In this document: positions 1-50,384 of the stretch, in pieces
Numbering within the stretch: position 1 is the first letter of the stretch
How the letters are laid out: each line of letters starts with the position of its first letter
Source of the DNA: Dipteris shenzhenensis
Taxonomy: Eukaryota
Length of the DNA: 64,000 nucleotides
Direction: 5' to 3' (one strand)
Assembly (NCBI GenBank): GCA_047967505.1
Contig: CM106538.1
The notes under the pieces: model-generated
The model's database searches: none
Told to the model about the DNA's origin: nothing
What the model saw: only the letters and a program-made list of their open reading frames with translations
Position numbers and translations under genes: made by a program

Positions 1-130
1 ATATGAAATGCTTTGTATATTTTGCGGAAAATTTGCTATAATATTACTATATTAAAAGAAAAAGTATTAGCTTCTTGGGTTTAATCAAAATAAGCAAAGT
101 ATAAAGCCAAGGAAAAGGCTGCATCAAACC

Positions 131-3100
131 TGAGGATGATTGTAATGACTTTGACATTAACCTCTTTCTTAGGATTCAAGAGGATTGAAATCTCTTCTTC
201 ACCAAATTCAAAAAAATGAGGTTGTTGTCGAATTAACAACATAGCGGTGAATGAACTTCCAATCTGCTCCAATAGATTCATATTTTCATGACTCATCTTA
301 TTGAGAGAGTAGTCTACATCATATTCTTCTTCACTTGCTATGTCTTCTACATCCTCCTTCTGCTATAAAAATATAAAAAAGTTATGCGATGTACACATCC
401 CAAATAAAGGCTTAAACAAGCAGATAAGGTTTCATACATGCTTTCATTAGAGTGAGTCTCTCCTCCACTTGGAGCAAAAATTAAAAAAGTAAGGTTTCAT
501 ATATGCTTTCATTATAGTGAGTCTCTCCTCCTCTTGGAGGAAAAATTTAAAAAGTTATGAGATTTACACATCCCAAATAAAAATAAAGGTTTAAATAGTC
601 ATAGAAGTATTAAAATAGCATGCTTTCATTAGACTCAGTCTCTTCTCCTCTTAGAGGAAAATATAAAAAAGTTATGAGATTTACACATCCCAATTTAAGG
701 CTTGAACAAGCATACAAGTATAAAGATAAGGTTTTATACATGTTGCAATGTAGTCATATTTTTAGTTTGTTTCCCAATGGTAGCAATTAGACGCTGAATA
801 CTCTCAGCCCGAAATGCTAGCAGATCGGCTTGTGTATATGATTCCATTTTGACTGGTAACTCCAAATCAAAAATCTCTCTAAGAAACAACATGCAGTTGT
901 AGGCAACTCTCCACCCACAGCTGTGCCCATATTTTTGCTCCATTGGCAGATGTCTTTTGAATTCTACTTGGTCTTGTTGCTCCGTGGTTGTTCTGATAGC
1001 AGATACTAGCCGATATGCGGCACTGTCCATCATGACATATTAAATATATTAATATGTCATGATCATAAGATACAAAATAAGAAAGTATCAAAAATATTAA
1101 GAGAATAATTACCTTGGGGAGTTGGCATGATAGCCTTCCATTGAATTCACAAACCATAAACGGTTGAGTTCAAGGTCCCAAACGATCAGACTCCAATGTG
1201 ACCTACATGACCAAAATAAAAATGATTATTGTTTTACACAAACTTGCCAAAGAAATAGTAAAAATCAGGTTAGAGTTGATACTTACGCCTCATGATAACG
1301 CATAAAGATGACTCGCACCCCATCTAAATTCAAAGGGCTTAACCAGGTACAAACATCTTCTATAGTCTTTTGAGGTGAGCTAAGAATAGAAGAAAGGAGA
1401 GCATTGAGCATGTAGACACGATGCTGCACTGCACTAGGAAGCTAAGAAATAACTACACTGCACTAAGAAATAAACAAACATTAGCTCATAGAATTGATTT
1501 GCATTCTGCACTAGGAAACTGATATATAACTACACTGTAAATAAATAAACAAATGTTAGCTCATTGAAGTAGCAACAAATAAACAAACGTTACCTGAGAA
1601 TGGCCAAGATAACATTGTCATTAACCTCTTTTAAAGGATTGGAGAGAATTGAAACCTCCTCTCTACCAAAGCTCAAATACTGAGGTTCTCGTTTCAAAAC
1701 GATCCTAACTTCAAATGAGCTCTCCATTTTATCCAATGCAGCTAAATTTGCAGAATGGGTCTCTGTCATAGCTTGTATTCTATGTTTGGGGTCATTCTAC
1801 TTTTCCATGGTGTCTTTAAAGCTCTTGTGCTCATGGGATTCTTCAATCAAATTTAGAGGTGGTTGCATTGTTGAAGTAAAAGGGAGTGCCTCCATATTGA
1901 CTTCATCCATTTCTTCTCCCTCTATTGCATGTAAACAAATATGAGAGATTAGATTCATTATCTTTAAATTTAAATCTTATTTAAAAAATTGTATCTAGTT
2001 AAGAAATAGAGAGTACATACTGCTAAGTATTGTCGTAGTGGCTTTTTTTCATAACCTTGCGAGCCATAATTATCAAAGAAGGCATCATCATGTTTGTCTT
2101 CATCCACCAACCTCTCTCTGAACGGGTCATGTAAGTCCATCTTTTCATCATCATCAACTGGGACATTATGATCTTCAAGGTAATCATCCATGTCATCAGT
2201 GTCCTTGTGGTTTATCTCTTTTTTATAGCCTGTGGTTAGATTTGTTTGAAGCTGAAAATAAGCCATGAAATGCTTATTTTCAATAATATTTGTGGAGTTG
2301 CCTTTTCTAAGGAGATCCTTAAATAAATATCCCATCCTGCACAAGGTGACCTCCCAACCTACCGGTAGCAAATTCTCCATCATGGTAAGCAAGAGACTCC
2401 CACTTTTTGCAGGACTTCCATAGTTGTTTTTTTGATAATGTATGGACCTGGGAATATCTTGCTCTTCTAGCATCAATCTCAAATTATTTGAATTCCCTCT
2501 TATGTTCTTTTGTAAGGAGTGATTAGGGTTGGGACTCCGCATACACAAAAAAAAAAAAGATGAATATGCTCACTCTAGAGTAACCTGCATGGCTTCTTTG
2601 TCTTTTTTATCAACAAAAATGACAATGTTGCAAATTGCCACTTTGCTAATGGTGGTATATACTATTCTATCAATGAAGTTATGGATATCATCGCTAGAAA
2701 CTTCATTGATAAAGAGTAGTTGTGGCTTATCCCATGCTGAGTCATTCTTGAAGAAGTCATCTTCTGAGACTCCCTTGAAGTTCACAAGCTTTCCAGACTC
2801 TACCGTAACCTCTATATTGAATTGAAACTTTGGTGCATATCTGTCGGCATCCTTATCTCGCTGATTAATCTTTCCACATGTGCAACCACCTGTTGTGGGA
2901 TTTCTTTTCTCATATAAGAGGTTACTATTTGTAACCCATCTTCATCCTTTTTAATCCACATGTTTGTCCATAGCTTTACCTTGGGTGTTGACAAAGAAGC
3001 TATATGCTTCACCACATTATAGTCAATGTTACAATGAGTAAGTGGCATTTGTTTCTCTGATAGCAAATACTTAATGGCACTATGCACTGCATTCACGCCT

Positions 3101-5146
3101 CACCTGTACATTGATGCATTCTTCCATGCAGTGGTCTTTGTCTTTTTTTCCAAAAAACCATTCTTTCTTTAAAATTTTTTGTGCTGCCATGGATGCATAC
3201 TTGTCAGGTAAGTACTTTATAGGCCTCCACATCCTTGCCATCAACTCCTTCTTATCCATTACCTTTGACTTTCCAGAGATAAACAAAGGAGCTTCATAGG
3301 TCAACTGTCCACGCTCACAAGCAATGCACGTTTCAAGCATCTCATTGAACACTTCAACAGGACAAAATATAATAGAAGTGTAGTCGGCATATCTGTCCCT
3401 CACCACCTTGAGGCTTGTCATACTTTCTTCTTGCTCTTGAGTTCCCCTAGGCACAACTGCACTCAAAGAAGTATAGAAGTTCGTGAGTGTGTCGGCGTCT
3501 GCTTTTGTGACCTTTCGCTTCAAATCAGGATTTGGAGAACCAAATGTTGTCCATATAACCCTTGCCTTCTGTAAGACCTCTGATGTTGAGGATATCTTAT
3601 GCTTTCCATGGACATAATGATTAAGTCTTTTGGACTCAATCAAATACTTGATCTCATGCTTGAATATACAGATTGTTGCAGGATAATAATGGAATGAACT
3701 TCTCTTTCCAAATTGTTCTGAAGTGAGTCTTTTGTCCTCCTTTGCTTCCTTTGCGATCTGATTACAAGCATAAGCCCAATGTTGACCATCAATGGGCTGG
3801 AATCTGCAATGGAGGAGGAATTCCTTCTTTGCTTCCTTTAGCATATTCTCACCTTGTGCCTCTTCGCCTTGTTCATGTGGAATATTTTTAAGTGTCTTTA
3901 AAGAATCGACTGAAGGTTTCCTCAAAATGTGTAGGCCCTGTAAATGTTATTTGATCCAAAAAACTATTTTTGATTGGACAAAACATTATTGGGCGCAAGA
4001 CCACATTGCTTGCCATAGGTTTCTTACCATCTCTCAAAGCCTCGTATATTTGCAGTGCATAGGATATATCAAGGCTTCGGCTATTAGTAAAGATAGCTGC
4101 AGCTTCCACATCTTTGGCATTCATAAACCATGTCCTTTGACCCCAGATATATCCCGCATCATCATCTGTAATTGCTTCATTAAGACGCAGATTAAGATTT
4201 TTGATTGATGTGAGTTCATCCTGATCATCTTCAGGCTCACGTTCTGAGTCTTCTTCATCTTTCTCTTCTTTTAACGGTCTTTCATCCACATTATCTCTCT
4301 CTATAGTGGGACGATGTCTTTTTTTACTATGAACTGTCGCTCTTGCAGTACTAGCCTTTTGCATTTCACATCGTGGTTTGCTAGCAAGAGCTTCTAGCAT
4401 AACTGCAGTGGATCGACCTTCATCTTCTTCAATTTTTTTAATTCCCGTGCACTCAAGGCTTGTGTTTCATCATCCTTAGTTACATCTACCATTTCTTGCT
4501 CTAGAAGTTTACGCTCATGTTCTACACGTTTGTGACAGTGTGCCTGTTCTTCTTGTCCCTGCATCAAAGTCTGAGCTTTTTGATCTCCATCATGTGAAGA
4601 TCCTTGAATATGAGGAGCATATTGTGCATCCTGAAAGTACTCAAACATTATCTTTGCATGCATCCTTTTTGCCACCACACTAGGAAATTGCTCCCAAGTA
4701 TATGAAAGAGTCTCCAATGCACTTTGCAGCTTTGGAAACTTTGATGGTTGAGGAGGAGGCATCACAAAGGTCTTTGAGTCTCTCCTTGACACAACAATAT
4801 GAAGACCGCCAACTTCAGGATCTGAACTCTTTGTAAAAATATCCACAAAAGTCTCTTTTGGCTCTATCATTATGCCTACTATAAGGCTTGAAGTCATATC
4901 TTTTTTGAAGAAAGTAGCATCCCATGGATCTTCAACACCATTGAACTCCCTTTTTGACATAAGTAGAAAGAGTCTCTTTTTCTTTTGATGAAGAAACCAA
5001 GCTCTTCTGCCCATGTGATATCGAGTCCACCTATTAAAGCCATTGGGGCTATATTCCTTTCCTTTGAAATTCAAAGTGACATCAAAAACCCATTCTCTAA
5101 TCTCAGAGTCATTTAGGATAGCCACCACATTAGTTGATTGCTCCAT
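131..5146 (-). pseudogene. Multi-exon transposon-cargo pseudogene: large N-terminal exon with IDGQH (ParB/DGQHR-like) motif, acidic linker, Ulp1/C48-like protease domain, and the start of a second Ulp1-like domain; probably continues beyond the left window edge
   Basis: Acceptor TATAG (5155-5151) lies just upstream of ATG 5146. A chain of frameshifted ORFs follows (4394-5146, 3888-4400, 3080-3925, 2812-3096, 2570-2785, 1970-2548). GT-AG exons then read ~1921-1594 (FGREEVSILSNPLKEVNDNVILAILR), ~1440-1287 (RVIFMRYHE), ~1203-1113 (SHWSLIVWDLELNRLWFVNS), ~1022-740 (EQKYGHSCGWRV) and ~362-131 (FGEEEISILLNPKKEVNVKVITIILR). Frameshifts and an in-frame TAG (~1798) indicate decay. Confidence 0.75.
365..735. 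repeat. Short degenerate tandem repeats (about 3 copies) inside the cargo gene
   Basis: Recurring AAAAAGTTATG(C/A)GAT.TACACATCCCAA and ATGCTTTCATTA.A.T.AGTCTC...CTCC.CTT.GAG blocks. Confidence 0.8.
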
Positions 5147-5199
5147 AATCCTATAAGAAAAGATAATGAAGAATTTAGATACATACAAGTAAAGTACAA

Positions 5200-5810
5200 T
5201 ATACAACACTTGATACAATAAATGTGGGAAATTTCCCAAAAGGCTTTACAAGGCTTCATATGGCAATAAATGTGGGAAATAGCCTAGAAGGCTTTACAAG
5301 GCTTAAATATTTGTACAAATGTAAAAAATTTAGCGAATAAAGCTTTACAGTAATATAAAATGTCATCTAGTGATAAAGCTTCAATCTTCATGAAGACATG
5401 TAATCTGTCCATCCATTGATTTGCCCTCTAGTCATAAAGCTTCAATCTTCATGATGACATGTAATCTGTCCATCCATTGATATCTATGCACTGATACCCA
5501 ACTGATGCAATCTACCCACTAAAAACTATTCCACTGATATCCACTTATGCAGCCCACTGATACTCGTTAAATAGTGAATGGTCGGGTTTATTACAAGGCG
5601 CTTCATATGACAATAAATGTAAAAATTAGCATAGAAGGCTTTACAAGGTTTTTTATGACAATAAATGAGCTTAAATATTTATACAAATGCAATAAAAATA
5701 ACCAATAATCATCAAGCTCCAATATGTCCCATGACATGTAATCTGTCCACTGATATATGTAATCTGTCACTGATATCTGCTCATGCAATCTGCCCACTGA
5801 TAAACTTCTT
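5200..5810. repeat. Small direct repeats in the presumed 5' leader intron of the cargo gene
   Basis: AAGGCTTTACAAGG(C/T)T occurs 3 times and ATAAATGTGGGAAAT twice. There is a ~62-bp tandem (CTAGT.ATAAAGCTTCAATCTTCATGA.GACATGTAATCTGTCCATCCATTGA) at ~5367-5480 and several CCACTGATA copies. Confidence 0.75.
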
Positions 5811-6259
5811 GGTAAATGGTAAACGGTCTTATTTAATAGCATGTTATGAGTGTTAAACTGCATGTGAGTGAAGGGACTGACAACAATTAGGAACTAGTTA
5901 GAAAAATTTGAGCATGGCTTCAATTGGAAACTTGGAGAATTGTCTCTCCTCTAAGGCAATCTAATCTATGCTAAACCAACCATCGAAGCGAAGAAAAGCA
6001 ATAAATAATTTCTTTTTCTGTGTTCATTTTAATGTGCTGGGGTTTAAGAGGCTTAAATATGCAAAAGAAGGGGTTTTGATGTAGAGGCTAAACTTGCATG
6101 TGAGAGAAATGAAGAACAAGTATCTAAAGAAAAGTTAACATTTTTCAATTTAAAAGATGAATATATATAAAAATATTATCTCACCTTCAAAACAAACCAT
6201 AAATTCACTCTTTTATAATTTTTTAAAGGTATAATATAAAACATGTAAATATATAAAAC

Positions 6260-6548
6260 TCTCTTTACTTTCTCTCTCTCTCTCTCTCTCGACTCCTAAA
6301 TCTCTCTGTAGCCATAGTCAAGACACCTCATTCTCTCTCTTAATCTCTCTCTCTCTCTCTGACAACTCTTATGTGTTTCCCTCTCTGTCCTCATCCCACT
6401 CATTCTCTCTCTTAGTTTATCTCAACTCTCTCTTTCTCTCCCTCCCATGGCGGCTAAGATTTTTTATTCTCTCTCTTTATCTCTCTCTCTCTTCCTAGGA
6501 TTTGTAATTATTTCTCTCTCTCTCCATCTCTCTCCTCTCTCTCTCTCT

Positions 6549-6601
<53 letters not shown>

Positions 6602-6764
6602 CCTCTCTACCTCCCTACCTCTATCCTCTTGGCTGCTAGGATTTGTCATTCTTTCCCTCTCTATGTCTCTCTCTCTCTCTCTGAATTCTCTCTCTTAATC
6701 TCTCTCAGCCTTCCTCCCTCCCTCCCTCCCTCCCTCCCTTGGCGGCCACGGCCGCGAGAATCTC

Positions 6765-6797
<33 letters not shown>

Positions 6798-7356
6798 ACC
6801 TCCCTCTCTTGGCGGCCCTCCCTCCCTCCCTTGGCGGCCACGGCCCCGAAGAGCCCATCTTCTCTCTCTTAATTTCTCTCTTTCCCTCTCTCCTCTTGCC
6901 ACGTTTCATTCTCTTAAACTTCTCTCTCTCTCTCCTCTCTCTCCCTCTTAAACTTCTCTCTCTCTCCCTCTCTCTCCCTCTCTCTCTTTCTCCCTCTCTC
7001 TCTTTCTCTCTCTCTCCCTCTCTCTCCCTACTCTCTCCCTCCCTCAAGCAGCCACAGTCGCCAGGAGACCCTCTTCTCTCTCTTAATCTCTCTCTCTCTC
7101 TCCTCTCTCTTTCTTTCCCTCCCTACTCTTCTCTCTCATTTAAGGATCCCCTCTTCTCTTTGTGAATCTCTCTCTCCCTCTCTCCTCTCTCTCTTTCTCT
7201 CCCTCCCTACTCCTCTCATTTCTCATTCTCTCTCTCATTTCTGTTCTCTCTCCCTTTGGCGGCCACGGCCGCCAAGAGCCCCTCTTCTCTCTCTTAATTT
7301 CTCTCTTTCCCTCTCTCCTCTCTCTTTCTCTCCCTCCCTATTCTCTCTCATTTCTC
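6260..7356. repeat. CT-rich low-complexity/microsatellite tract with interspersed TTGGCGGCCACGGCC motifs
   Basis: (CT)n runs, with GGCGGCC motifs at ~6740, 6810, 6832 and 7258. Confidence 0.9.
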
Positions 7357-7627
7357 AAATTTACAAACTCAAATATAAATAAGAAACTAATTAAAATAGA
7401 ACTCAAAAACTCAAATAAGAAACTAATTTAAAAAGAATTGTAATGCCTTCTAAAAAACCCTTTTCCTCAAAAACTTTAACAATAAACTAATTGAAAAAGA
7501 ATTGTAAGTAAAGCAAAAGAATTACAAGACGAATTTTAAGAAATACAACTCAAAAACTTTAACAAGAAACTAATTGAAAAAGAATTGTAAGTAAAGAAAA
7601 AGAATTACAAGACGAATGAAAAAGAAA

Positions 7628-7756
7628 GCAAGTACCTGGAAAAAGTGAAAAAAGTAAGGCTTCGATTATCCTTTCTCTTCAGCTCTTGGTTGCTTCAATG
7701 AAATGAGGAGAGAATGAGAATGAATGAATGGAAAGAAGAGTATATATAAGAAAAAC
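7628..7756 (-). promoter_or_regulatory. Putative TATA box + non-coding leader exon (copy 1) for the minus-strand gene
   Basis: On the minus strand TTCTTATATATA is followed by ~100 nt and a donor-like TCCAG|GTACTT at 7636/7635. It is homologous to 10422-10567. Confidence 0.5.
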
Positions 7757-8399
7757 TAGCCCACTCCTCCCATGCATAAATTTGAATTTTCAAAAAAGAG
7801 AGGAAAATTTGAATTCATTATAAATTTGAATTCAAATTTGTGTTCAACATTCTTCTTATACTTTCTTCTCGTACGTTCCTTTTGAATTCAAATTTGTGGT
7901 CAACATTCTTCTTGATACTTTCTTCTCGTAAGTCCCTTTTATTCTTCTCGTAAGTCAAATCTTATTTGCCGCTCTTGCTTGTGATAGTAAGTCAAATCTT
8001 ATTTGAGCAAGAATCTTATTTGTCGCTCTTGCTCGTGATAGTTCTACTCTTAGTTGTAAGAATTCAAATTTGTGTTCAACATTCTTCTTGATACTTTCTT
8101 CTCGTAAGTCCCTTTCATTCTTTTCCTAAGTCAAATCTTATTTGTCTCTTGTAAGAATTTGACCTCTCTCCCTCTACTCCCTCGCTTCTCTCTCCTTCAC
8201 TCTCTCTCTCTGTCTCTCCCTCTACTCCCTCTACTCCCTTGCTTCTCTCTCCCTCACTCTCTCTCTCTCTCCCCTCTCCCCTCCCTCTCTCTCCCCTCCC
8301 TCCTCTCCCCTCTCTCTCCTTCTGCTCCCCTCCCCCCTTCCTCCCTCCCCTCCCCTCCCCCCCCTCCCTCGACCCCTCCATCCCCCCCACCCTTTCCCT

Positions 8400-9960
8400 C
8401 CCCTCCCCTCGTGGAGGGTCCTGACAGCCGCACTAGAACCCCCCCTCCCTACCCCCTGCCCCCACCCGCCCCCCTCCCTCCCTCGACCTTGCCCCTACTC
8501 CCCTCCCCCCTCCGCCCCCCCCCTCCCCTACCCGGCTCCCCTCCCCCCCCTCCCCTCCCCTCCCCCCTCCTTGGGGGTCTGGTGGCTGCGGCCGCCAAAA
8601 CCCCCCCCACCCCGTCCCTCCCCTCCCCCCTCCAGGGGGTCCTGGCGGCCGCGGCTGCCAGACCCCCCCGCCCCCTCCCTCCCTCGACCCCAACCCCCCC
8701 AACCCCTCCCTCCCCTCCCCCCTCCCCCTCCCTCCCCTCCCCCCTCCAGGGATCCTGGCGGCTGCGGCCGCCAGACCCCCCCGCCCCGTCCCTCCCTCGA
8801 CTGCAAACCCCCCCACCCCCCCACCCCCTCCCCCCTCCAGGGGGTCCAAGCGACCGCGGCCACTAGACCCCCCCGCCCCCCTCCCTCCCTCGACCCCAAC
8901 CCCCCCCACCCCCTCCCTCCCCTCCCCCCTCCAGGGGTCGTGGCGGTCGCGACCGCCAGACCCCCCGCCCCCTCCCTCCCTCAACCCCAACCCCCCCACC
9001 CCCTCCCCCCTCCAGGGGGTCCTAGCGGCCGTGGCCGCCAGACCCCCCGCCCCGCCCCCCCTCCCTCCCTCCCTCGACCCCAACGCCCCCGACCCCCTCC
9101 CTCCCCTCCCCTCCCCCCTCCCTCCAAGGGGTCCTAGCGACCATGGCTGCCAAACCCCCCCCGCCCCTCCCTCCCTCGACCCTGCCCCCGCTCCCCTCCC
9201 CCCCTTCCACCCCCCCCTTCCCTACCCAGCTCCCCTCCCCCCCCTTCGCCTCCCCTCCCCCCCTCCTTGGGGGTTTGGCAGCCATGGCCGCCAGAACCCC
9301 CCCACCCCGTCCCTCCCCTCCCCCCTCCAGGGGGTCCTGGCGGCTGTGGCCACCAGACCCCCTTCCCCCCTCCCTCCCTCGACCCCAACCCCCCCCACTC
9401 CCTCCCTCCCCTCCCCCCTCCAGGGGTCTTGGCAGCCACGGCCGCCAGACCCCCCCCCCTCCCTCCCTTGACCCCAACCCCCCCACCCCCCTTGGCGGCC
9501 GCGGTCGCCAAAACCCCCCCCTTCCCTCCCTCGACCCCAACCCCCCCCCACCCCCTCCCCTCCCCCCTCCAGGGGTCCTGGCGGCCGTGGCCACTAGACC
9601 CCCCCTCCCTCCCTCGACCCCAACCCCCCTCCAGGGGTCCTGGCAGCCGCAATCGCCAGACCCCCCCTCCCTCCCTCGACCCCAACCCCCCCCACCCCCT
9701 CCCTCCCCTCCCCCCTCCAGGGGTCCTTGTGGGCACGGCCGCCAGACCCCCCCCTCCCTCCCTCGATCCCAACCCCGCCCCACCCCCTCCCTCCCCTCCC
9801 CCCTCCAGGGGGTCCTGGCGGCCGCGGCTGCCAGACCCCCCCTCCCTCCCTCGACCCCAACCCCGCCCCACCCCCTCCCTCCCCTCCCCCCTCCAGGGGG
9901 TCCTCGTGGCGGCCGCAGCCGCCAGACCCCCCCTCCCTCCCTCCCTCGCCCCTGCCCCTA
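8400..9960. repeat. GC-rich minisatellite, ~17 units of ~60-140 bp, each with a near-palindromic core flanked by C-runs
   Basis: Core GGGGGTC(C)TGGCGGCCGCGGCCGCCAGACCCCC and variants at ~8572, 8635, 8748, 8839, 8934, 9015, 9128, 9268, 9329, 9422, 9571, 9633, 9720, 9807 and 9895, embedded in a C-rich tract 8160-10350. Confidence 0.9.
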
Positions 9961-10421
9961 CCATGCCCCTCCCTCCCTACCTACCACCGCCCTCGCCCCC
10001 ACCCGCCACCCCCTCCCTCCCCTCCCCCTCAGCCCCCGCCCCTCCCTCCCTACCCGGCACCCCCGCTCCTCTCGCTGTTGCCCTCGCCCCCACCCCCCCT
10101 CCCTCGATCCCGCCCCTGCCCCCGCCCCCGCCCCTCCCTCCCCCCCCTCCCTACCTCCCTCGACCCCGCTAGAACCCCCCCTCCCTCCCTCCCTCACTCC
10201 CGTCCCCGCCCCTCCCTCCCCCCGCTCCCTACCTGGCTCCCCTCCCCCCTTCCCCTCCCCCCCCCTCTCCCTCCCTCCACCTAGCCCCTTGCCCCTCCCT
10301 CCCCTCCCCCCTCTCCATCCTCTCCTTCTCCTCCCCTCCTCGTGAACCTCTCTCTCTCTAGTTCCTCTCTCTTCAAATTTAAAAAAAAAAAATCTAGATA
10401 AAGAATTAATCAAAAAAATTT

Positions 10422-14100: not shown

Positions 14101-17100
14101 TTGCACACACCTTCAAATAGGTGGAATTGACTTACATTCAAAGTGGCACGCCCATCCCATAAGTGCTTGATCGGATAACATACCTAGCAGCGTGTTTTTT
14201 TACGGATGTGCATGAAGCTAGAGCAAAAATAGTATTTAATGCTCGATCGACCATGCAAAGGATATCCGATGGGCACAATACTTTTCCTACACTACAACCT
14301 AGGTGGTATTGAAATGTTCTCAAAGAGGCACACCCATCCGATAAGTACTTGGTCAGAAAACACACCTAAGGGCATGTTTTTTTGCGGATGTGCATATCAC
14401 TAGGGAAAAAACGGTGTATAATGCGCGATCAACCATGCAAAGCATATCCGATGGTGAAAATACTTTGCACGCACCTCAACATAGTTGAAACGGACTTGTG
14501 TGCAAAGTGGAGCCCCTATCCGATTAGTACTTGTTTGATTAACACACCTAGGACCGTGTTTTTTCATGGTTGTGCATGACACTAAGGTAGAAACGTTGTT
14601 TTATGCTTGATTGACAATGCAAAGCTTATCTGATGGGCACAATACTTTGCACACACCTTCAACTAGGTGGAATTGACTTACATGCAAAGTGGCACTCCCA
14701 TGCCATAAGTGCTTGATCGGATAACATACCTAGCAGCATGTTTTTTTACGGATGTGCATGACATTAGAGAAAAAATAGTATTTAATGCTCGATCGACCAT
14801 GCAAAGGATATCCGATGCGCACAAGACTTTTTGTATGCCTCAACCTAGGTGGTATTGAAATGTTCTCAAATGCAAAGGATATCCGATGGGCACAACACTT
14901 TTCGTACGCCTCAACCTAAGTGGTATTGGAATGTTCTCAAAGAGGCACACCCATCTGATAAGTACTTGGTCAGATAACACACCTAAGGGCGTGTTTTTTT
15001 GCGGATGTGGATATCACTCGGGAAAAAATGGTGTATAATGCGTGATTGACCATGCAGAGCATATCCGATGGTGACAATACTTTGCACGCACCTCAACATT
15101 GATGAAACGGACTTGCATGCAAAGTGGAGCCCCCATCCGATAAGTACTTGTTTGAATAACACACCTACGGTCGTGTCTTTATATGGTTGTGCATGACACT
15201 AAGGCAAAAACGTTGTTTTATGCTTGATCGATGTTTGATCGACAATGCAAAGCATATCCGATGGGCACAACACCTTGCACACACCTTCAACTAGGTGGAA
15301 TTGACTTACATGCAAAGTGGCATTCCTATCGCATAAGTACTTAATCGGATAACACACCTAGCAGCGTGTTAACCAGACTTGCGTGCAAACTGGAGACCCC
15401 ATCTGATAAGTACTTATTTGATTAACACACTTAGGACCGTGTTTTTTCATGGTTCTGCATGACACAGGCAAAAATGGTGTTTTATGCTTGATAAACAATG
15501 CAAAGCATATCCGATGGGCACAATACTTTGCACACACCTTCCACTAGGTGGAATTGAATTACATGCAAAGTGGTACACCCATCCCATAAGTGCTTGATCG
15601 GATAACATACCTAGCAGCGTGTTTTTTTTACGGATGTGCATGACACTATAGCAAAAATAGTATTTAATGCTTGATTGACCATGCAAAGGATATCCGATGG
15701 GCACAATAATTTTCCTACACTGCAACCTAGGTGGTATTGCAATGTTCTCAAAGAGGCACACCCATCCGATAAGTACTTGGTCAGATAATAGACCTAAGGG
15801 CGTGTTTTTTTGTGGATGTGCATATCACTCAGGAAAAAATGGTGTATAATGTGTGATCGACCATGCAAAGCATACCCGATGGAGACAATACTTTGCACGC
15901 ATCTCAATGTAGTTGAAACGGACTTGCTTGCAAAGTGGAGCCCCCATCCGATAAGTACTTGTTTGAATAACACACCTACGGCCGTGTTTTTTCATGGTTG
16001 TGCATGACACTAAGGCAAAAACGGTGTTTTATGCTTGATCGACAATGCAAAGCATATCGGATGGGCACAATACTTTGCACACACCTTCAACTAGGTGGAA
16101 TTGATTTACATGCAAAGTGGCATTCCCATCGCATAAGTACTTGATTGGATAACACACCTAGCAGCGTGTTTTTTATGGATGTGCATGACACTAAGGCAAA
16201 AATGGTATTTAATGCTCGATCGACCATGCAAAGCATATCCGATGGGCACAATACTTTTCCTATGCCTTAACCTAGGTGGTATTGAAATGTTCTTAAAGAG
16301 GCACACCCATCCGAAAAGTACTTGGTTAGATAACATACCTAAGGGTGTGTTTTTTTGCGGATGTGCATATCACTACGGGAAAAACGTTGTATAATGTGTA
16401 ATCGACCATGCAGAGCATATCCAATGCTGACAATACTTTGCATGCATCTCAACCTAGTTGAAACAGACTTGCGTGCAAACTGGAGCCCCCATCCCATAAT
16501 TACTTGTTTGATTAACACACTTAGGACCGTGTTTTTTCATGGTTGTGCATGACACTAAGCCAAAAACAGTGTTTTATGCTTGATCGACAATGCAAAGCAT
16601 ATCCGATGGGCACAATACTTTGCACACACCTTCAAATAGGTGGAATTAACTTACATGCAAAGTGGCACACCCATCCCATAAGTGCTCGATCGGATAACAT
16701 ACCGAGCAGACTGTTTTTTTTACAGATGTGCATGACACTAGAGCAAAAATAGTATTTAATGCTCGACCGACCATGCAAAGGATATCCGATGGGCACATTA
16801 CTTTTCCTACACTGTAATCTAGGTGGTATTGAAATGTTCTCAAAGAGGCACACCCATCCAATAAGTACTTGGTCAGATAACACACCTAAGGGTGTGTTTT
16901 TTTTGCAGATGTGCATATCACTAGGGAATAAACGGTGTATAATGCGTGATCGACCATGCAAAGCATATCCAATGGTGACAATATTTTGCATGCACCTCAA
17001 CGTAGTTGAAATGGACTTGCATGCAAAGTGGAGCCCCCATCCGATAAGTACTTGTTTGATTAACACAGCTAGGACCGTGTTTTTTCATGGTTGTGCATGA

Positions 17101-20100
17101 CACTAAAGCAAAAACGGTGTTTTATGCTTGATCGACAATACAAAGCATATCCGATGGGCACAATACTTTGCACACACCTTCAACTAGGTGGAATTGACTT
17201 ACATGCAAAGTAGCACTCCCATCCCATAAGTGCTTGATCGGATAACATACATAGCAGCGTGTTTTTTTACGGATGTGCATGACACTGGAGCAGAAATAGT
17301 ATTTAATGCTCGATCGACCATGCAAAGGATATCCGATGGGCACAACACTTTTCGTACACCTCAACCTAGGTGGTATTGAAATGTTCTCAAAGAAGCACAC
17401 CCATCCGATAAGTACTTGGTCAGATAACACAGCTAAGGGCGTGTTTTTATGCGGATGTGCATATCACTAGAGAATAAACGGTGTATAATTCGTGATCGAC
17501 TATGCAAAGCATATCCGATGGTGACAATACTTTGCATGCACCTCAAAGTATTTGAAACAGACTTGCGTTCAAAGTGGAGCCCCCATCCGATAAGTACTTG
17601 TTTGAATAACACACCTAGGACTGTGTTTTTTCATGGTTGTGCATGACACTAAGGCAAAAACGGCGTTTTATGCTTGATCGACAATGCAAAGCATATCCGA
17701 TGGGCACAATACTTTGCACACACCTTCAACTAGGTGGAATTGACTTACATGCAAAGTGGCACACCCATCCCATAAGTGCTTGATCGGATAACATACCTAG
17801 CAATGTGTTTTTTACAGATGTGCATGACACTAGAGCAAAAATTGTATTTAATGCTCGATCGACAATGCAAAGGATATCCGATGGGCACAACACTTTTCCT
17901 ACACCGCAATCTAGGTGGTATTGAAATGTTCTCAAAGAGGCACACCCATCCAATAAGTACTTGGTCAGATAACACACCTAAGGGTGTGTTTTTTTGTGGA
18001 TGTGCATATCAGTAGAGAAAAATGATGTATAAAGCGTGATCGACCATGCAAAGCATATCCGATGGTGACAATACTTTGCACGCACCTCAATGTAGTTGAA
18101 ACGGACTTGCGTGCAAAGTGGAGGCCCCATCCGATAAGTACTTGTTTGAATAACACACCTAGGACCGTGTTTTTTAATGGTTGTGCATGACACTAAGGCA
18201 AAAACGGTGTTTTATGCTTGATCGACAATGCAAAGCATATCCGGTGGGCACAATACTTTGTACACACCTTCAAATAGGTGGAATTGATTACATGCAAAGT
18301 GGCACACCCATCCCATAAGTGCTTGATCAGATAACAGACCTAGCAACGTGTTTTTTTTACAGATGTGCATGACACTAGAGCAAAAATAGTATATTTAATG
18401 CTCGATTGACCATGCAAAGGATATCCGATGGGCACAATACTTTTCCTACACCGCAACCTAGGTGGTATTTAAATGTTCTCAAAGAGGCACACACATCCGA
18501 TAAGTACTTGGTTAGATAACACACCTAAGGGCATGTTTTTTTGCGGATGTGCATATCACTAGGGAAGAAATGGTGTATAATGCATGATCAACCATGCAAA
18601 GCATATCCGATGGTGACAATACTTTGCATGCACCTGAAAGTAGTTGAAACAGACTTGCGTGCAAAGTGGAGCCCCCATCCGATAAGTACTTGTTTGATTA
18701 ACACACTTAGGACCGTGTTTTTTCATGGTTGTGCATGACACTAAGGCAAAAACGGTGTTTTATGCTTGATCGACAATGCAAAGCATATCCAATGGGCACA
18801 ATACTTTGCACACACCTTCAACTAGGTGGAATTGACTTACATGCAAAGTGGCACACCCATATCATAAGTGCTTGATCAGATATTATACCTAGCAACATGT
18901 TTTTTTATGGATGTGCATGACACTAGAGCAAAAATTGTATTTAATGCTCGATCGACAATGCAAAGGATATCCGATGGGCACAACACTTTTCCTACACCGC
19001 AGCATAGGTGGTATTGAAATGTTCTCAAAGAGGCACACCCATCTGATAAGTACTTGGTCAGATAACACACCTAAGGGAGTATTTTTTTGCAGATGTGCAT
19101 ATCACTAGGGAATAAACGGTGTATAATGCGTGATCGACCATGCAAAGCATATACGATGGTGACAATACTTTTCACGCACCTCAACGTAGTTGAAATGGAC
19201 CTGCGTGCAAAGTGGAGCCCCCATCCGATAAGTACTTGTTTGATTAACACACCTAGGACCGTGTTTTTTCATGGTTGTGCATGACACTCAGGCAAAAACG
19301 GAGTTTTATGCTTGATCGACAATACAAAGCATATCCGATGGGCACAATACCTTGCACACACCTTCAAATAGGTGGAATTAACTTACATGCAAAGTAGCAC
19401 TTCCATCCCATAAGTGCTTGATCGGATAACTTACCTAGCAACGTGTTTTTTTACGGATGTGCATGACACTAGAGCAAAAATTGTATTTAATGCTCGATCG
19501 ACCATGCAAAGGAAATCCGATTGGCACAACACTTTTCATACACCTCAACCTAGGTGGTATTGAGATATTCTCAAAGAGGCACACCCATCCGACAAGTACT
19601 TGGTCAGATAACACACCTAAGGGCGTGTTTTTTTATGGATGTGCATATCAGTAGAGGAAAAATGGTGTATAATGTGTGATTGACCATGCAAAGCATATCC
19701 GATGGTGATACTACTTTGCATGCACCTCAATGTAGTTGAAACGGACTTGCGTGCAAAGTGGAGCCCCCATCCGATAAGTACTTGTTTGAATAACACACCT
19801 AGGACCGTGTTTCTTCATGGTTGTGCATGACACTAAGGCGAAAAAGGTGTTTTATTCTTGATCGACAATGCAAAGCATATCCGATGGGCACAATACTTTG
19901 CACACACCTTCAATTAGGTAAAATTGACTTACATGCAAAGTGGCACGCCCATCCCATAAGTGCTTGATTAGATAACATACCTAGCAGCATCTTTTTCTAC
20001 GGATGTGCATGACACTAGATCAAAAATGGTATTTAATGCTCGATCGACCATGCAAAGGATATCCGATGGGCACAACACTTTTTGTATGCCTCAACCTAGG

Positions 20101-22820
20101 TGGTATTGAAATGTTCTCAAAGAGGCACACCCGTCCGATAATTACTTGGTCAGATAACACACCTAAGAGGGTGTTTTTTTGCAGATGTCCACATCACTAG
20201 GGAAAAAATGGTGTATAATGCGTGATCGACCATGAAAAGCTGGTAACAATACTTTGCACGCACCTCAACGCTGTTGAAACGGACTTGGGTGCAAAGTGGA
20301 GCCCCCATTCAATAAGTAGTTGTTTGAATAACACACCTACGGCCGTGTTTTTATATGGTTGTGCATGACACTAAGGCAGAAACGGTGTTTTATGCTTGAT
20401 CGACAATGCGAAGCATATTCGATGGGAACAATACTTTGCACACACATTCAACTAGGTAGAACTGACTTACGTGCAAAGTGGCATTCCCATCGCATAAGTA
20501 CTTGATCGGATAACACACCTAGCAGCGTGTTTTTTTACGAATGTGCATGACACCAAGGCAAAAATGGTATTTAATGCTTGATTGACCATCCAAAGCATAT
20601 CCGATGGGCACAATACTTTTCCTACACCGCAACCTAGGTGGTATCAAAATGTTCTCAAAGAGACACACCCATCCGATAAGTACTTGGTCAGATAACACAC
20701 CTAAGGGCATGTTCTTTTGCAGATGTGCATATCACTAAGGAAAAAACGGTGTATAATGCATGATCAACCATGCAAAGCATATCCGATGGTGACAATACTT
20801 TGCACGCACCTGAAAGTAGTTGAAACGGACTTGCGTGCAAAGTGGAGCCCCCATCCGATAAGTACTTCTTTGATTAACACACCTAGGACCGTGTTTTTTC
20901 ATGGTTGTGCATGACACTAAGCCAAAAACGGTGTTTTATGCTTGATCGACAATGCAAAGCATATCCGATGGGCACAATACTTTGCACACACCTTCAACTA
21001 GGTGGAATTGACTTACATGCAATGTGGCACACCCATCCCATAAGTGCTTGATCGGATAACATACCTAGCAGTGTGTTTTTTTTACGGATGTGCATGACAC
21101 TAGAGCAAAAATAGTATTTAATGCTCGATCGACTATGCAAAGGATATCCGATGGGCACAATACTTTTCCTACATTGCAACCTAGGTGGTATTGAAATGTT
21201 CTGAAAGAGGCACACCCATCCGATAAGTACTTGGTCAGTTAACACACCTAAGGGCATGTTGTTTTGCGGATGTGCATATCACTAGGAAAAAAATGGTGTA
21301 TAATGGGTGATCGACCATGAAAATCATATCCGATGGTGACAATACTTTGCACGCACCTCAACCTAGTTGAAACGGACTTGCATGCAAAGTGGAGCCCCCA
21401 TCCAATAAGTACTTGTTTGATGAACACACCTAGGACCGTGTTTTTTCATGGTTGTGCATGACACTAAGGCAAAAACGTTGTTTTATGCTTGATCGACAAT
21501 GTAAAGCATATCCGTTGGGCACAATACTTTGCACACAACTTCAACAAGGTGGAATTGACTTACATGGAAAGTGGCACACCCATCCCATAAGTGCTTGATC
21601 GCATAACATACCTAGCAGCGTGTTTTTTTTACGGATGTGCATGACACTAGAGCAAAAATAGTATTTAATGCTTGATTGACAATGCAAAGGATATCCGATG
21701 GGCACAATACTTTTCCTAAACTGCAACCTAGGTGGTATTGAAATGTTCGCAAAGAGGCACACCCATCCGATACGTACTTGGTTAGATAACACACCTAAGG
21801 GCGTGTTTTCTTGCGGATGTGCATATCTGTAGGGAAAAAATGGTGTATAATGCGTGATCGACCATGCAAAGCATATACGATGGTGACAATACTTTGCACA
21901 CACCTCAAAATAGGTGAAACAGACTTGCATGCAAAGTGGAGCCCCCATCCGATAAGTACTTGTTTGAATAACACACCTAGGACCGTGTTTTTTCATGGTT
22001 GTGCATGACACTAAGGGAAAAACGGTGTTTTATGCTTGATCGACAATACAAAGCATATCCGATGGGCACAATACTTTGCACACACCTTCAACAAGGTGGA
22101 ATTGACTTACATGCAAAGTAGCACTCCCATCCCATAAGTGCTTGATCAGATAACATACCTAGCAGCATGTTTTTTTACGGATGTGCATGACACTGGAGCA
22201 AAAATAGTATTTAATGCTCGATCGACCATGCAAAGGATATCCGATGGGCACAATACTTTTCCTACACCGCAACCTAGGTGCTATTGAAATGTTCTCAAAG
22301 AGGCACACCCATTCGATAAGTACTTGGTCAGATAACATACCTAAGGGTGTGTTTTTTTGTGGATGTGCATATCACTACGGGAAAAACGTTGTATAATGTG
22401 TGATCGACCATGCAAAGCATATCGGATGGTTACAATACTTTGCACGCACCTCAAGGTAGTTGAAACGGACTTGCATGCAAAGTGGAGCCCCCATCCGATA
22501 AGTACTTGTTTGATTAACACACTTAGGACCGTGTTTTTTAATGGCTGTGCATGACACTAAGGCAAAAACGGTGTTTTATGCTTGATCGACAATGCAAAGC
22601 ATATCGGATGGGCACAATACTTTGCACACACCTTCAGCTAGGTGGAATTGACTTACATGCAAAGTGGCACTCCCATCCCATAAGTGCTTGATCGGATAAC
22701 ATGCCTAGCAGCGTGTTTTTTTTACAGATGCATGACACTAGAGCAAAAATAGTATTTAATGCTCGATCGACCATGCAAAGGATAACTTGGCGTGTCCATC
22801 TGATGAGTACTTGATCGGAT
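11180..22820. repeat. Tandem satellite of ~64 monomers of ~182 bp, organised as a 3-monomer ~546-bp higher-order repeat (~19-20 HOR copies); left ~1.2 kb more divergent
   Basis: Marker GGATGTGCATATCACT recurs at ~12759, 13294, 13840, 14386 ... 21815 and 22361, mostly 545-547 bp apart. TGCAAAG(C/G)ATATCCGATGG and ATAAGT(A/G)CTTG recur about every 182 bp. Confidence 0.97.
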
Positions 22821-22948
22821 AACTTCTCCCACCAATAAATTAAGTACTAATTAAAAATTATAATAAATGAGTAGATTATTAAAAAGAGACTAATATTTAT
22901 GTAATTGTTGCTACTACAGCTTGCTTGCGAAGGACTCTCACAGAGGAG

Positions 22949-25900
22949 ATGGCTATAGATTTTGTTCCAGGGATGGATGTGATTTCATGTAGCAAAAGAG
23001 AAGTAGTTGCATTTGCTACAATCCATGATAGTGATCCCAATTCAGTTTGCCACTTTCGAAGACTTGGCGAAGATAAGGTGGCAGTTACTGTATCAAAGAT
23101 TCTTAGCACACATGTTGAGCTAAAGTATAAATGTGGAGATATGGAAACACTTGGAGATGTTATGCCCTACAATACATCCAACAAATCATTTATAGCATGG
23201 GACAAAGATGAGACTTATGCAGCAGACATTATCAAGAATACAAAGTGCACCACCTTGGATTTTACTATAGGGGACATTTTACAAATGAGATCATTTCCAA
23301 ATAAGACTGTAGCAGAAGGTGAAGTATTGGGGGGTTGAACAAGTGGAGCAATGGTCATTTGCACAGATGAGGATTCGAAAAGTCACTGATGATGGTATGG
23401 TCGATAACATAACATCCTTATGTGATCCCTACTATGAGGTAGGCAAGAATATGAGATGGAGCATGCAATTTTTAAACATGAGAAAGAGGCACATGGTTTT
23501 CAATGATAAAGACAAAGTATACTACAATATCAAAGGACCTAAAAAGCGTGCCCATGTGCCAGGCTCTATCACTTCAAATGTGGATGATTTCAATATACTC
23601 AATTATAGAAGTGACATCTGGAGTGGATGAGTTCATTGGTTCCGAGAAACAAAATGATTTTAGAAGTGAAGCCTTATCTGGGGTGGATGAATTCTTGCAC
23701 AGTGAGAAGGGCAAAGGTTTCAATAGCGATGTCTTGTCAAGTGTGGATGAGTTCATGCATATTAACAAACCTGGTGTCAATCAAGCTTGTGGATTTGTGA
23801 AAGCCATGCAAGATGTCCCAATGAGTGATGTTCTCTCAGGAGTGGAAGAGTTTCAAGGTTCTCAATACTCTTGTAGAATATTGAATTCATTGAATGGTCC
23901 TAAGAGTATGTTAAAAACGAGGATGAGATCAACAGAGGATTATTCAATATTTAACTTTGATTGTGATATGGCCAAGGATGCAACGACCAATCATGGATGC
24001 TTGGTTACAAACAAATGTGAGAAGAAGAAGTGCATAAATACAGATAACAACATGCACGAGGAACGAAAACGGTCATACATATGCATGAAGAGAAAGCGAA
24101 TCCAGGCAGATCCACAAAAGCAACCAAAGAGGAAGAGAGTAATGAAGGAGGAGAACATGTTAAATGCATTGGGATATCTATGTTGCAAGCGAAGATATAT
24201 GCGCTTCATTGATCTTGCAGGCATCAGGGAATGTAGAGGGCACGTGTGGCAAAGAAGAGGAAGCAAAAGAAATGAATACCTTCTCACAAGTCTCTCTTGC
24301 TTTCTTCAGAATGGCAATAAAAGGCTAAGTTCAAGACAAAAGGTAAAACCTCTCGTAAATGGAAAAAGGATTTGCAATAAGGCATATCGCAATATTACTA
24401 GATTATCCCATTGTACATATTGGGATTTAGTCACCAAGGCAAAGGGCGGCAACAAATTTAGCATTCACGATAATAGAGGAAGGTCCAAATCAAGAATCTC
24501 AATTGTCAGGGCAGCAGCAATTTTGCAAGACTTCATACATGAAAATGCTTTATCTCAACCCCATATATCTACCAAACTCCCTAATAGTGACGCGATCACT
24601 GAAATGCACCTTGCAATGGGCTTGACAAAGCTTGAAGTATTTGACTCTATTGCAAAAAAGCAAAGGCAAAGAGGGGATGCCATAGCGTCTTCTCATACTT
24701 TGTATACTCTTTGGAAGAAGAACTTTGGATATGTTAAAATCCCAAGGAGGCAAAAAATATCAAAGTGCAATGTATGTGATGATTTAAAGCGAGCGATTGA
24801 GAGTGCAACATGTCCAAATCAAAGGGAATTATACAAAAAAAACTGAAAATCTCATCATGACCTTATTCGACATTCCAGACAAAAATATGCATTTTGGAAG
24901 GAGCAAGCTATTTCGCATCCCGAAGACTACATGTGCCTTATTGCAGATGGCATGGATCAGAATACGACAACATTACCTCATCTTGTTGCCACTCCACCTA
25001 AATTACAAGGAAAGCACTTTCTAAAGACACATCTATGTGGAGTGTTAGTGCATGGAATTAAGTTCTTTGTAGATATATGGATTGATTCCTTACATGATAG
25101 CAATCAAGTTGTAACATCTATTATGAAGGCAATTCGCAATGTACATGCAGAAAAAGGTCGCCTACCACCAACTTTGAGAATACAAGCTGATAATTGCTAG
25201 CGAGAAAATAAGAATGTACTCATGTTTGCATTCTGCTCCATGCTAGTTGCTCATCGAATCTTCAATGAGGTCGAATGTGGATTTTTGTATGTTGGGCATA
25301 CACATGAGGATATCGATCAGGTTTTTAGCACAGTCTCAAGGGAGCTTAAATGCAAGGATGTGGAGACAATAGATGACTTGGTAAGAAGATGTGGCAGGCA
25401 AGTTGGTGGTCGTAAGGAAAGTACAGTATGTGAGAGGCTCGAAAGAATGTATGATTGGAAGAGCTTCATTCTACCTTTCATACAAATGGGTGGTGATGCA
25501 TTGATAGGTCATACCAATCCACACTACTTTCGTTTTTTTTTGAAAGATGAAAAACCTGTAATGCAATGGCAACAGTATTCTCATGATACAAAATGGGAAC
25601 CTGAAGAACCTTACAGTCTCTTAACTTCAATTCCCAGCAAGGAAAGGTATCCAACATGGGCTCCTATACAAGAATTCAATGAGAGGTCTAACTGTGAAAT
25701 AGAAGGATTAAAAGCATTTATTACATACAAAGAGGAAATGTTCCAGAGATATCCTGATTCGAAGCCTACTTGGAGAGAACACACTACCACTATAATTAAC
25801 AAGACATGAAAGAAATTTAATAAAGGACCTTGAGAGAATGAGAGGCTCAAAGGATGTCAAGGAAGAATGCAATATGTTTTGGCCAAATGTTCATAACGAT

Positions 25901-26413
25901 TTGCACCCAGCTCCAGTCTTTGAAAATGAATTTGTATCATTACTCCCACGTCCATATTGTGGACCGAAGAAGAGAGAGTTTATGCCACAAGTAGATATAA
26001 AGGTCGATTGTTTTGTTGTGGTTCGGCCATCAGATGATGAATATGAGAATGTGAAGTTTTGGGTTGCAAAAGTAGTTGATGCGCAAAGAGATGACCAAGG
26101 GAGAGCTACAACATTTACAGTGGTATGGTATGAGCCAAAGGGCAGGAAGGAGAATATGGATAACAACACATTGTATACTAATTGTATAATGAAAGAGTGG
26201 GTCCCAAATGATGAAGCGGTCTCTCAAGTTTCGACGGAGACAATCATAGTGTCTTGGCATTCAAGGGCAAAGAAATCAAAGAAGCGCATGGGATATGAGG
26301 TAGAAGGAAAAATAAAAATACCATAGCAAACTATTTTGCATATACACGAATTTTTAAGGATGCTCGCCATGGAGGAAGTAGAAGGAGACAGCGCAAATGA
26401 AGAATGTCCATGA
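22949..26413 (+). pseudogene. Decayed DUF7869/Sola1-like transposase with N-terminal Tnp1/En/Spm-like domain(s) and a C-terminal SH3/Tudor-like segment
   Basis: Motifs ISKCNVC, CLIADGMDQNTTTLPH, THLCGVLVHG, PPTLRIQADNC*RENKN, FLYVGHTHEDIDQVFS, PHYFRF and FWVAKVV...VVWYEP. Frameshifts occur at ~23335, ~23625 and ~24840, and stops at 25198, 25807 and 26324. Acceptor CTACAG at 22919 precedes ATG 22949. Confidence 0.8.
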
Positions 26414-26530
26414 TTAAAGCTTTGTATTGAAGTCCATTGAAGGATTTTATTTGGGTACTAGGGAAGAAGCCAATCCAAGACAATTATAATCAGAGTCATC
26501 ACTTCCTATGTCAAATGAGAGTCAAAATAT

Positions 26531-26940
26531 GCACTGGATGTCACCCAAGGGTCAAGGCTTTTGCCAAGACAATAGGGAGTTAATGCAGATGGCACCTGGC
26601 AAGGGACTATCACATTGAGCAATAAGACAATGGGGAGTCAATGCACCCAAGGGGCAAGGCTTGGCAAGACAACTTGTGGGAGTTAATGCAGATGGCACTT
26701 GTATTTTGCACTGGATGTCACCCAAGGGTCAAGGATTGGCAAGACAATAGGGAGTTAATGCAGATGGCACCTGGCAAGGGACTATCGCATTCAGCAATAA
26801 GACAATGGGGAGTCAATGCACCCAAGGGGCAAGGCTTGGCAAGACAAATGGGAGTCAAATTATGCAGATGGCACCTGGCAAGGGACTGTCGTGACATTGA
26901 GCAATAAGACAATGGGGAGTCAAATTATGTAGATGGCATG
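26531..26940. repeat. ~178-bp tandem duplication built from shorter AAGACAA.GGGAGT.AATGCA subunits
   Basis: GCACTGGATGTCACCCAAGGGTCAAGG at ~26531 and ~26708; GCAGATGGCAC occurs 4 times. Confidence 0.85.
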
Positions 26941-27389
26941 AATTGAGGCTCTTTAAGAGCAACAATTTAAATTGTAAACATATGTTCAATCTATATCATT
27001 TTGGATATAAAGACTCTAGCTGAGAGCAATGTCTCTCAATGTAATCATATAATAATAGCTATAATTGCTATTATACCTCTTTGGTTCAATACAAACTTGG
27101 GTCTTATGGCATCATGTCTTTTTTCTATTTATTAAAAGTTTTAAAAATTTTGTGCATATTGCGAGTGACAATGTTATTTTCATGAAATATTTAAGTCTCC
27201 TTTCACGGACTTATAAATTTATCACGTCAAGGAAAAACATCAAGGAAAAATATTGAAAATAATTAAATTAACAAATAACTTAGATATAGCTAGAATTTCT
27301 AATATAGGATTATTTCAAATTCTTGCATGTTGTTGCAAAAGTATAGATTGAAAAAACAATATTTTTATGTGAATATGATAGTGCCACAA

Positions 27390-27542
27390 AGTGAACTTTT
27401 GATTTGGGAAGAATATTTTCAGAATGTAAAATTTTGATTTGGGAAGGATATTTTCACAAAGTAAAGTTTTCATTTGGGAAGGATTTTTGGGCTTCGTCCA
27501 AAAACAATAGAAAAAGTCCAAAATTAATGAAATAGGTGTTAA
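27390..27542. mobile_element. Putative right subterminal repeats/terminus of the large DUF7869-type element
   Basis: Three ~35-bp repeats TTTT(G/C)ATTTGGGAAG(G/A)AT(A)TTTT, then AAAATTAATGAAATAGGTGTTA, abutting CACTA coding sequence. The same repeat and end motif occur at 51730-52080. Confidence 0.55.

Positions 27543-50339: not shown

Positions 50340-50384
<45 letters not shown>

Follow-up and report, generated by a model that had tools for sequence, protein, structure and literature searches.

Is a block of more than 27 kb, with two decayed genes and a long satellite array, one giant DNA transposon or a set of separate repeat-derived pieces lying side by side? The question is raised by a stretch of the Dipteris shenzhenensis genome (assembly GCA_047967505.1, contig CM106538.1), of which we analyzed 64,000 nucleotides (nt), hereafter "the window". 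The block occupies positions 1-27540 of this window, which is eukaryotic, packed with repeats and has a background of about 40% GC. An initial annotation, made from the sequence alone, described two decayed genes pointing away from each other, with leader modules and three repeat arrays between them, and took the whole for a single mobile unit. The layout is as described. Gene 1 starts from an ATG at 5146 on the minus strand and gene 2 from an ATG at 22949 on the plus strand, and the space between them holds the leader modules, CT-rich tracts, a C-rich minisatellite and a 182-bp satellite (Table 1). As the annotation also stated, no recognisable long terminal repeat (LTR) or CACTA piece lies there: the open reading frames (ORFs) scanned in this space have no Pfam transposon domain, and the CACTA end motif occurs only elsewhere. 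As to unity, we favor on balance, and with modest confidence, a mosaic over a single transposon: independent pieces, each derived from repeats, that lie together in a repeat-rich part of a plant-like genome.

In the history that we propose, the first piece would be what is left of one copy of a cut-and-paste transposon, now dead, from a family with many copies; it encodes a DUF7869 protein of about 1,127 codons with an RNase-H-like DDD core. Intact sister proteins would bind the ends of the element, excise it and insert it elsewhere. The repeated unit would extend at most to 27540 on the right and, on the left, would take in at least part of the final, degenerate monomer of the satellite. The second piece, made up of the 182-bp satellite and the C-rich and CT-rich arrays, would have grown by unequal exchange. 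The third would be a decayed gene in which a DGQH-motif domain, to which no function is assigned, is linked to Ulp1-like cysteine-protease domains. Plant transposons often bear Ulp1-type genes, and the transposon to which gene 1 belonged may sit to the left of the window.

The evidence on the first piece comes from gene 2 itself. Its reading frame is interrupted by an in-frame TGA at 24844 and an in-frame TAG at 25198 and is spread over four frames, that is, three frame changes. Pfam and the predicted fold both agree with its earlier description as a DUF7869 transposase-type gene. Two ORFs match DUF7869 (PF25273, gathering cutoff 26 bits), one at 24847-25200 (2.5e-13, 50.5 bits) and one at 25201-25809 (5.1e-33, 114.7 bits); separated by the in-frame TAG, they jointly cover positions 3-191 of the 192-position profile. 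When the read-through translation with X at both stops (P0001) was used as the query, we recovered 60 homologues, 57 of them with PF25273. In 5/80 related loci, the sequence that directly follows DUF7869 is matched by 25796-26326, and this C-terminal piece is therefore part of the same protein.

Three acidic residues stand out in an alignment of 26 sequences (A3): D263 (in DGMDQ) and D384 (in GHTHEDID) are invariant, D344 (in QADNC.RENKN) is nearly invariant, and the window copy retains all three. Two motifs that the initial annotation had named as typical of Sola1-related transposases are present here as ADNC-stop-RENKN and VGHTHEDID. The AlphaFold2 (AF2) model, built with 70 sequences, has a predicted local distance difference test score (pLDDT) of 87.6 and a beta1-3/alpha/beta4/alpha/beta5/alpha core, which is the RNase-H-like order of strands and helices. 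Compared with 48,161 chains by VIA-align, the model resembles the catalytic domain of Mos1 (Z 10.5, root-mean-square deviation 3.1, 166 aligned), Metnase (Z 10.1) and the integrases of the retroviruses PFV (prototype foamy virus), SIV (simian immunodeficiency virus) and RSV (Rous sarcoma virus), at Z 9.8-10.0. The top rows of a Foldseek search are TnsB, IstA, integrases and Mos1, none at E<=1e-3, and a PDB profile search with the DUF7869 alignment gave 0 matches. On these grounds we assign gene 2 to the DDD-type cut-and-paste transposases, with a catalytic chemistry predicted from its fold and conserved acidic residues. The term "DUF7869" was not found in the literature that we searched, and the Pfam family is still unnamed; the predicted fold and conserved residues described here mark it as a transposase family.

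Whether the window copy stands alone can be addressed with contigs from public sequencing runs, which we mapped to positions 22600-30000 only; the figures below refer to the contigs listed. Runs X1 (labeled "organism A", only 1.95 Mb of contigs) and X2 (labeled "algae metagenome") contain about half of the sampled gene 2 words, and none of the runs listed as containing them is an RNA data set. Together their contigs cover 30/30 bins of 22600-30000, as do those of X1 alone, with at least two variants in X1 over 22999-23487; contig depth does not equal copy number here, and the source sample itself may be X1 or X2. Relative to the window, sister contigs have one base fewer at 23332, five extra bases after 23615, four fewer at about 25808 and an A>G change at 25199 that alters the TAG. 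A script that applied these differences joined the four frames of gene 2 into a single frame of 1,127 codons in which only the TGA at 24844 remains; this frame hinges on exactly where the 4-base gap is placed, and the differences listed do not include the state of sister copies at TGA 24844. Because the sister differences restore a single frame, gene 2 is a dead copy from a many-copy family that has, or recently had, open copies.

These sister copies also bear on another possibility, namely that the satellite and the dead transposase gene were multiplied together by segmental or tandem duplication of heterochromatin, without transposition and with gene 1 as a bystander. The junction of the degenerate monomer with gene 2 in contigs of two runs is consistent with such an event, as is a window full of many kinds of repeat. 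We nevertheless consider it quite improbable, as the frame-restoring states in the sister copies fit a family that spread as a working element, and one sister contig departs from the window sequence already at 27089 and has a different flank from there on.

At its right end the block has a sharp boundary. The initial annotation had it abut the middle of a CACTA coding exon at about 27542; the true break lies at 27540/27541, and it is real because the CACTA contigs of X1, X2 and a third run, X3, carry other upstream sequence that is absent from the window. The bases directly right of the break are AACG. At 27577 the sole X1 contig among those listed is a CACTA contig with a loose end, and of two 30-mers taken from loose ends of sister contigs, neither occurs in the window. 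Such a boundary would be expected if positions 1-27540, together with more sequence to the left, formed one giant DUF7869 transposon with divergent genes and a shared upstream region swollen by arrays, inserted into the CACTA exon. We rate this reading as rather doubtful. The sharp edge, backed by sister CACTA contigs, speaks for it, while the departure of a sister contig already at 27089 speaks against it.

The repeats next to the boundary, described earlier as subterminal-type, are not those of a CACTA element; the 35-bp repeats at 27385-27488 recur at 51731-51837. A motif search with the 35-bp repeat returned five matches in the window, all on the plus strand, versus 0.1 expected. The repeats belong to a module of about 135 bp (TAGTGCC, then three repeats of 34-35 bp). 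Two copies of it, identically oriented and separated by 24 kb, lie at 27355-27490 and 51690-51837, and the second copy has no adjoining DUF7869 or CACTA sequence. We considered the TAGTG that precedes both modules as a CACTA end and rejected it, since real CACTA ends in the window read CACTACTACACAC and have different subterminal repeats. The end motif has two matches in the window, one at the terminus of the truncated CACTA element (30044-30058) and one at 57769-57783. Beside the latter lies an inverted fragment (58028-58925) that is 84% like 28935-29855, and the region of this inverted copy, 57769-58925, runs into CT-rich and CATATG-type repeats.

The arrays make up most of the distance between the two genes; once they are removed, only about 3 kb of unique sequence remains, a short spacer that suits a single element with divergent genes. 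The minisatellite, at 72% GC in a region of about 40%, has units with a palindromic GC core between C runs. The CT-rich tracts are not confined to the block, with similar ones at 50283-51650, 56228-57156 and 58948-59800, which argues against treating them as parts of one element. The satellite had been called an internal higher-order array, and this proves accurate: from about 12460 it is a three-monomer (546-bp) higher-order repeat, with a mean identity among 40 monomers of 0.76 at lags 1-2 versus 0.91 at lags 3, 6, 9, 12 and 15. Its 182-bp monomers occur nowhere else in the window. Similarity to the higher-order unit is 73-83% along the diverged left edge (11186-12460). On the right it holds at 90-94% to the very end, where the array breaks off abruptly, just 110 bases ahead of the gene 2 ATG. 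With a diverged left edge and an abrupt, homogeneous right end, the satellite appears to stop at a breakpoint on the right rather than at the edge of an array grown in place, and this abruptness counts against a single giant element.

Long satellites are commonly mis-joined in assemblies, and the linkage of the gene 1 side to the gene 2 side across 11.6 kb of satellite could be an assembly artefact, the more so as the right-hand junction alone was compared with reads. We hold this to be very improbable indeed, given that the array is ordered at the higher-order level, that its left edge is naturally diverged and passes into regular units, and that contigs bridge the right junction. We also considered the ratio of satellite to gene 2 depth as a test of co-occurrence and dropped it, because the collapse of monomers deprives it of meaning and contig depth does not equal copy number.

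Gene 1 is a decayed gene, or a string of genes, with an N-terminal part, a core bearing a DGQH motif and an Ulp1-like part. Of the span 5146-131 given in the initial annotation, the start stands and the end does not. Another Ulp1-type first exon lies at 81-362 and is oriented toward the left edge, so the gene 1 string continues past the edge of the window. Stops at 2570-2572 and 1797-1799 lie between ORFs of the same frame, and introns are possible there. None of nine pieces of the gene scored above a Pfam family cutoff.

The core belongs to a small eukaryotic family without a name. Searching 1.84 billion proteins with HMMER, we found 11 matches at E<=1e-3 for the frame at 3080-3946 (288 residues), the best at 9e-17, and derived the family motif (E/K)P(V/I)DGQH..AC.E(I/L)A, with LRPI upstream. 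Family members also align colinearly with the adjoining upstream frame (3888-4466), and therefore gene 1 carries a frameshift within 3888-3946. Only one relative is named: a hypothetical protein from the lycophyte Diphasiastrum complanatum. In Pfam the 11 matches have no transposon, ParB or protease domain, and one of them has two weak, unrelated matches. A profile search for further members returned 11 proteins with no names and no Pfam domains, a word-index search of the core against longer proteins gave no match, and scans of metagenome contigs and of viral contigs for relatives of gene 1 found none.

Two leads on the function of the core did not gain support. Gene 1 had been labeled "ParB-like", a label for which we found no support: 0/11 family members match a ParB-type or DndB profile in Pfam (E<=10), NCBIfam (E<=10) or PADLOC (E<=1). 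The only likeness to the ParB/sulfiredoxin-like nucleases, which include DndB with its DGQHR motif, is the DGQH motif, and the label goes back to it. The top atlas neighbor of the family is DUF3723 (0.94, 153/256 features), a weak lead only; the family has no Pfam match to DUF3723 at E up to 10. A PDB profile search with the gene 1 alignment yielded one match, which is irrelevant, and the AF2 model of the core (pLDDT 47.5) is too poor for fold comparison.

For the protease part, the earlier assignment to Ulp1-like proteins finds some support in the atlas search. The ORF at 734-1039 scored 0.96 with 200/256 features in common, and 26/30 matches fall in the Peptidase_C48 (PF02902) set. In the PDB, phmmer found only SENP7, as two sequences with weak E-values (0.63 and 0.79), aligned at the Q..CG site. 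The PF02902 profile did not match any single exon-like ORF of gene 1 at E up to 1, a test that is weakened because the domain is split over four ORFs. By eye we recognize what we take to be the Ulp1 catalytic motifs, with the His in SHWSL and the Cys in HSCGW; the position presumed to hold the Asp has an Asn.

Do genes 1 and 2 belong to the same element? Several observations weigh against the mosaic. The junction between the satellite and gene 2 is bridged by contigs of both X1 (about 22733-23029) and X2 (about 22768-23022). Because X1 assembles little beyond repeats and yet bridges it, this hints that the junction is itself repeated and that the repeated unit may continue leftward through the satellite. 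Among the contigs listed, none bridges 27540/27541, in X1 or otherwise. A compact element should have a left end near 22838-22949, where we found none that convinces: the best inverted pair there, an AT-rich match of 18 nt, was reached by 14/500 shuffles, and no terminal repeat for a compact element is better than chance. No transposase other than gene 2 lies beside gene 1 in the window, and no left end appears within it. Finally, DUF7869 genes do keep company elsewhere. In a survey of 28 loci of at least 5 kb, in which 60/132 ORFs of at least 150 amino acids (aa) were scanned, a large second gene stands beside the DUF7869 gene in four, on metagenome contigs. It is divergent in two of them, with an OTU protease in L014 and an N6_N4_Mtase DNA methylase in L055, and in one bivalve protein (P0040) an OTU domain is fused to DUF7869. 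As described in PMC2836005, the cut-and-paste transposons of the Ginger1 family use OTU and Ulp1 cysteine-protease modules in place of each other.

Ginger1 resembles the present case insofar as DUF7869 relatives show an OTU domain, fused (P0040) or in a neighboring gene (L014). It differs in carrying the protease as a C-terminal fusion to its integrase-type transposase, in an element of 2.6-7 kb, whereas the Ulp1 part here sits in a separate gene on the opposite strand, 17.8 kb away.

Against a single giant element, gene 1 has no copy-level evidence of any kind, and the limits on contig depth and on the origin of X1 and X2 apply to what the contigs say of gene 2. Relatives of gene 1 are present in 0/80 distant DUF7869 loci (384 kb searched by tblastn with 11 pieces, and 4,702 ORFs with two profiles), and by hhalign the companion proteins at the distant loci have no relation to gene 1. 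We saw no terminal repeat or target duplication for the block, whose left end would lie outside the window; within the window there is no inverted copy of its last 20 bases or of the 35-bp repeats. We regard as unlikely the full claim of a transposon of more than 27 kb with a DUF7869 (possibly Sola1-type) DDD transposase, a divergent DGQH/Ulp1 companion gene and a higher-order satellite array between them. If it were true, the element would carry its satellite along as it moves around the genome, its size would be unusual for a cut-and-paste element of a plant-like genome, and it would offer a concrete case of a transposon-borne higher-order satellite.

How does gene 2 compare with Sola1? Sola transposases are of the DDD type, and gene 2 has a predicted RNase-H-like fold with three conserved Asp placed as a DDD triad would be; its family, moreover, has many copies. 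The homologues with a species name (7/7) all come from bivalves, a group with reported Sola1 elements according to PMC10294476. The bivalve Sola1 consensus elements in that paper average 5,445 bp, far from the more than 27 kb of a giant element. The hallmark 4-bp AWWT target-site duplication given in PMC3845634 was not seen in the block, nor were terminal inverted repeats found in it, the left end being outside the window. The reported insect Sola1 ORF has 630 aa, versus about 1,127 codons in gene 2. As of 2017, Sola had no Pfam family (PMC5751038).

Two further groups share features with the block. Like the giant transposons Teratorn and Starship, which measure tens of kilobases and carry accessory genes, the block as claimed would span tens of kilobases with an accessory gene; their mobilizing enzymes are piggyBac or a tyrosine recombinase, unlike gene 2. 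DUF3723, the weak atlas lead for the DGQH family that Pfam does not back, is a Starship accessory gene. The Ulp1-like genes of Kaonashi and CUMULE are often decayed and duplicated, as is the Ulp1-like gene here, likewise in a plant setting. To our knowledge, the DGQH-motif domain is not known from these elements, and unlike them the window has no Mutator-like element (MULE) transposase domain in the ORFs scanned. Both are cited as Ulp1-carrying plant Mutator-like elements within PMC2836005.

The coordinates of all features, including the four distant loci with a large companion gene, are collected in Table 1. The recurrence of OTU-protease, DNA-methylase or SET-domain neighbors of DUF7869 genes is a pattern worth a survey.

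Table 1. Features of the window and of four distant DUF7869 loci (coordinates of the latter refer to their own contigs; ORF, open reading frame; TRF, Tandem Repeats Finder)
Feature	Position	Strand or orientation	Basis or content
Gene 1, decayed gene or gene string: N-terminal part, DGQH-motif core, Ulp1-like part	81-5146	-	ORFs; ATG 5146
Second Ulp1-type first exon, paralogue of 1590-1796	81-362	-	Translation; DNA 145-223 vs 1609-1687, 77.5% over 80 bases
Ulp1-like (peptidase C48) domain, four exon-like ORFs	1590-1796, 1283-1441, 1109-1225, 734-1039	-	Atlas search
Gene 1 core, small eukaryotic family without a name	3080-4466	-	HMMER; split over two frames
Duplicated upstream leader modules, with 61-bp and 21-bp tandem units	5215-5800		TRF 5366-5481, 5736-5776
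CT-rich low-complexity tracts	~6240-8410		TRF; GC skew -0.5
C-rich minisatellite, 88-93 bp	8439-10335		TRF periods 88, 92, 93, 175, 184; GC 0.725 for 8001-10000
182-bp satellite, ~60 monomers, 11.6 kb	11186-22838		TRF
Gene 2, DUF7869 transposase pseudogene, ~1,127 codons	22949-26326	+	ATG 22949, stop 26324-26326; Pfam, homologues, fold
175-bp tandem repeat 3' of gene 2	26530-26923		TRF, 1.8 copies at 95%; self-BLAST
Three 35-bp repeats	27385-27488	+	TRF, BLAST, alignment; second copy 51731-51837, same orientation
Breakpoint, block/CACTA exon	27540-27541		Loose ends before 27541 in CACTA contigs of X1, X2, X3
CACTA element, 3' part	27541-30058	+	TnpD-type ORF with DUF4218, 27973-28689 (Pfam 7e-24); terminus ...GTAGTAGTG at 30058
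Copia-type ORF, rve + SH3_retrovirus	40741-41496		Pfam
Copia-type ORFs, RVT_2	41506-42006 and 63206-64000		Pfam
L014, DUF7869 locus with companion gene	711-6764	companion divergent	OTU protease
L055, DUF7869 locus with companion gene	1095-8339	companion divergent	N6_N4_Mtase DNA methylase
L067, DUF7869 locus with companion gene	2360-9463	companion tandem	Methylase + SET
L053, DUF7869 locus with companion gene	1321-5970	companion convergent	Methylase + SET

Some of the distant loci have repeats of their own. In three of them the spacer that separates the companion from the DUF7869 gene is exactly where long inverted repeats (62-87 nt) are found: L055:5049-5310, L067:5873-6119 and L053:4131-4410. 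At L002:4001-5708 a DUF7869 copy has its 3' region three times (4001-4255, 4510-4746 and 5569-5708), and therefore tandem duplication beside a DUF7869 transposase gene is not unique to the window. The element ends in L002, L013 and L064 revealed neither a terminal repeat nor a target duplication, because the loss of similarity is gradual and tandem duplications obscure the limits.

Elsewhere in the window, positions 38700-45417 are likely a full-length Copia-type element, in which 550-bp direct repeats (38700-39251 and 44856-45417, 89.7% alike) flank the integrase and reverse transcriptase (RT) ORFs. A third LTR-like copy of this element lies at 59967-60517, and a 477-bp unit occurs twice at 62398-63348, with 98% identity, adjoining the Copia RT ORF at 63206-64000. 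A further pair of direct repeats (34979-35337 and 37494-37854; 360 bp, 94% identity, 2.5 kb apart) could represent LTRs that belong to a small non-autonomous element.

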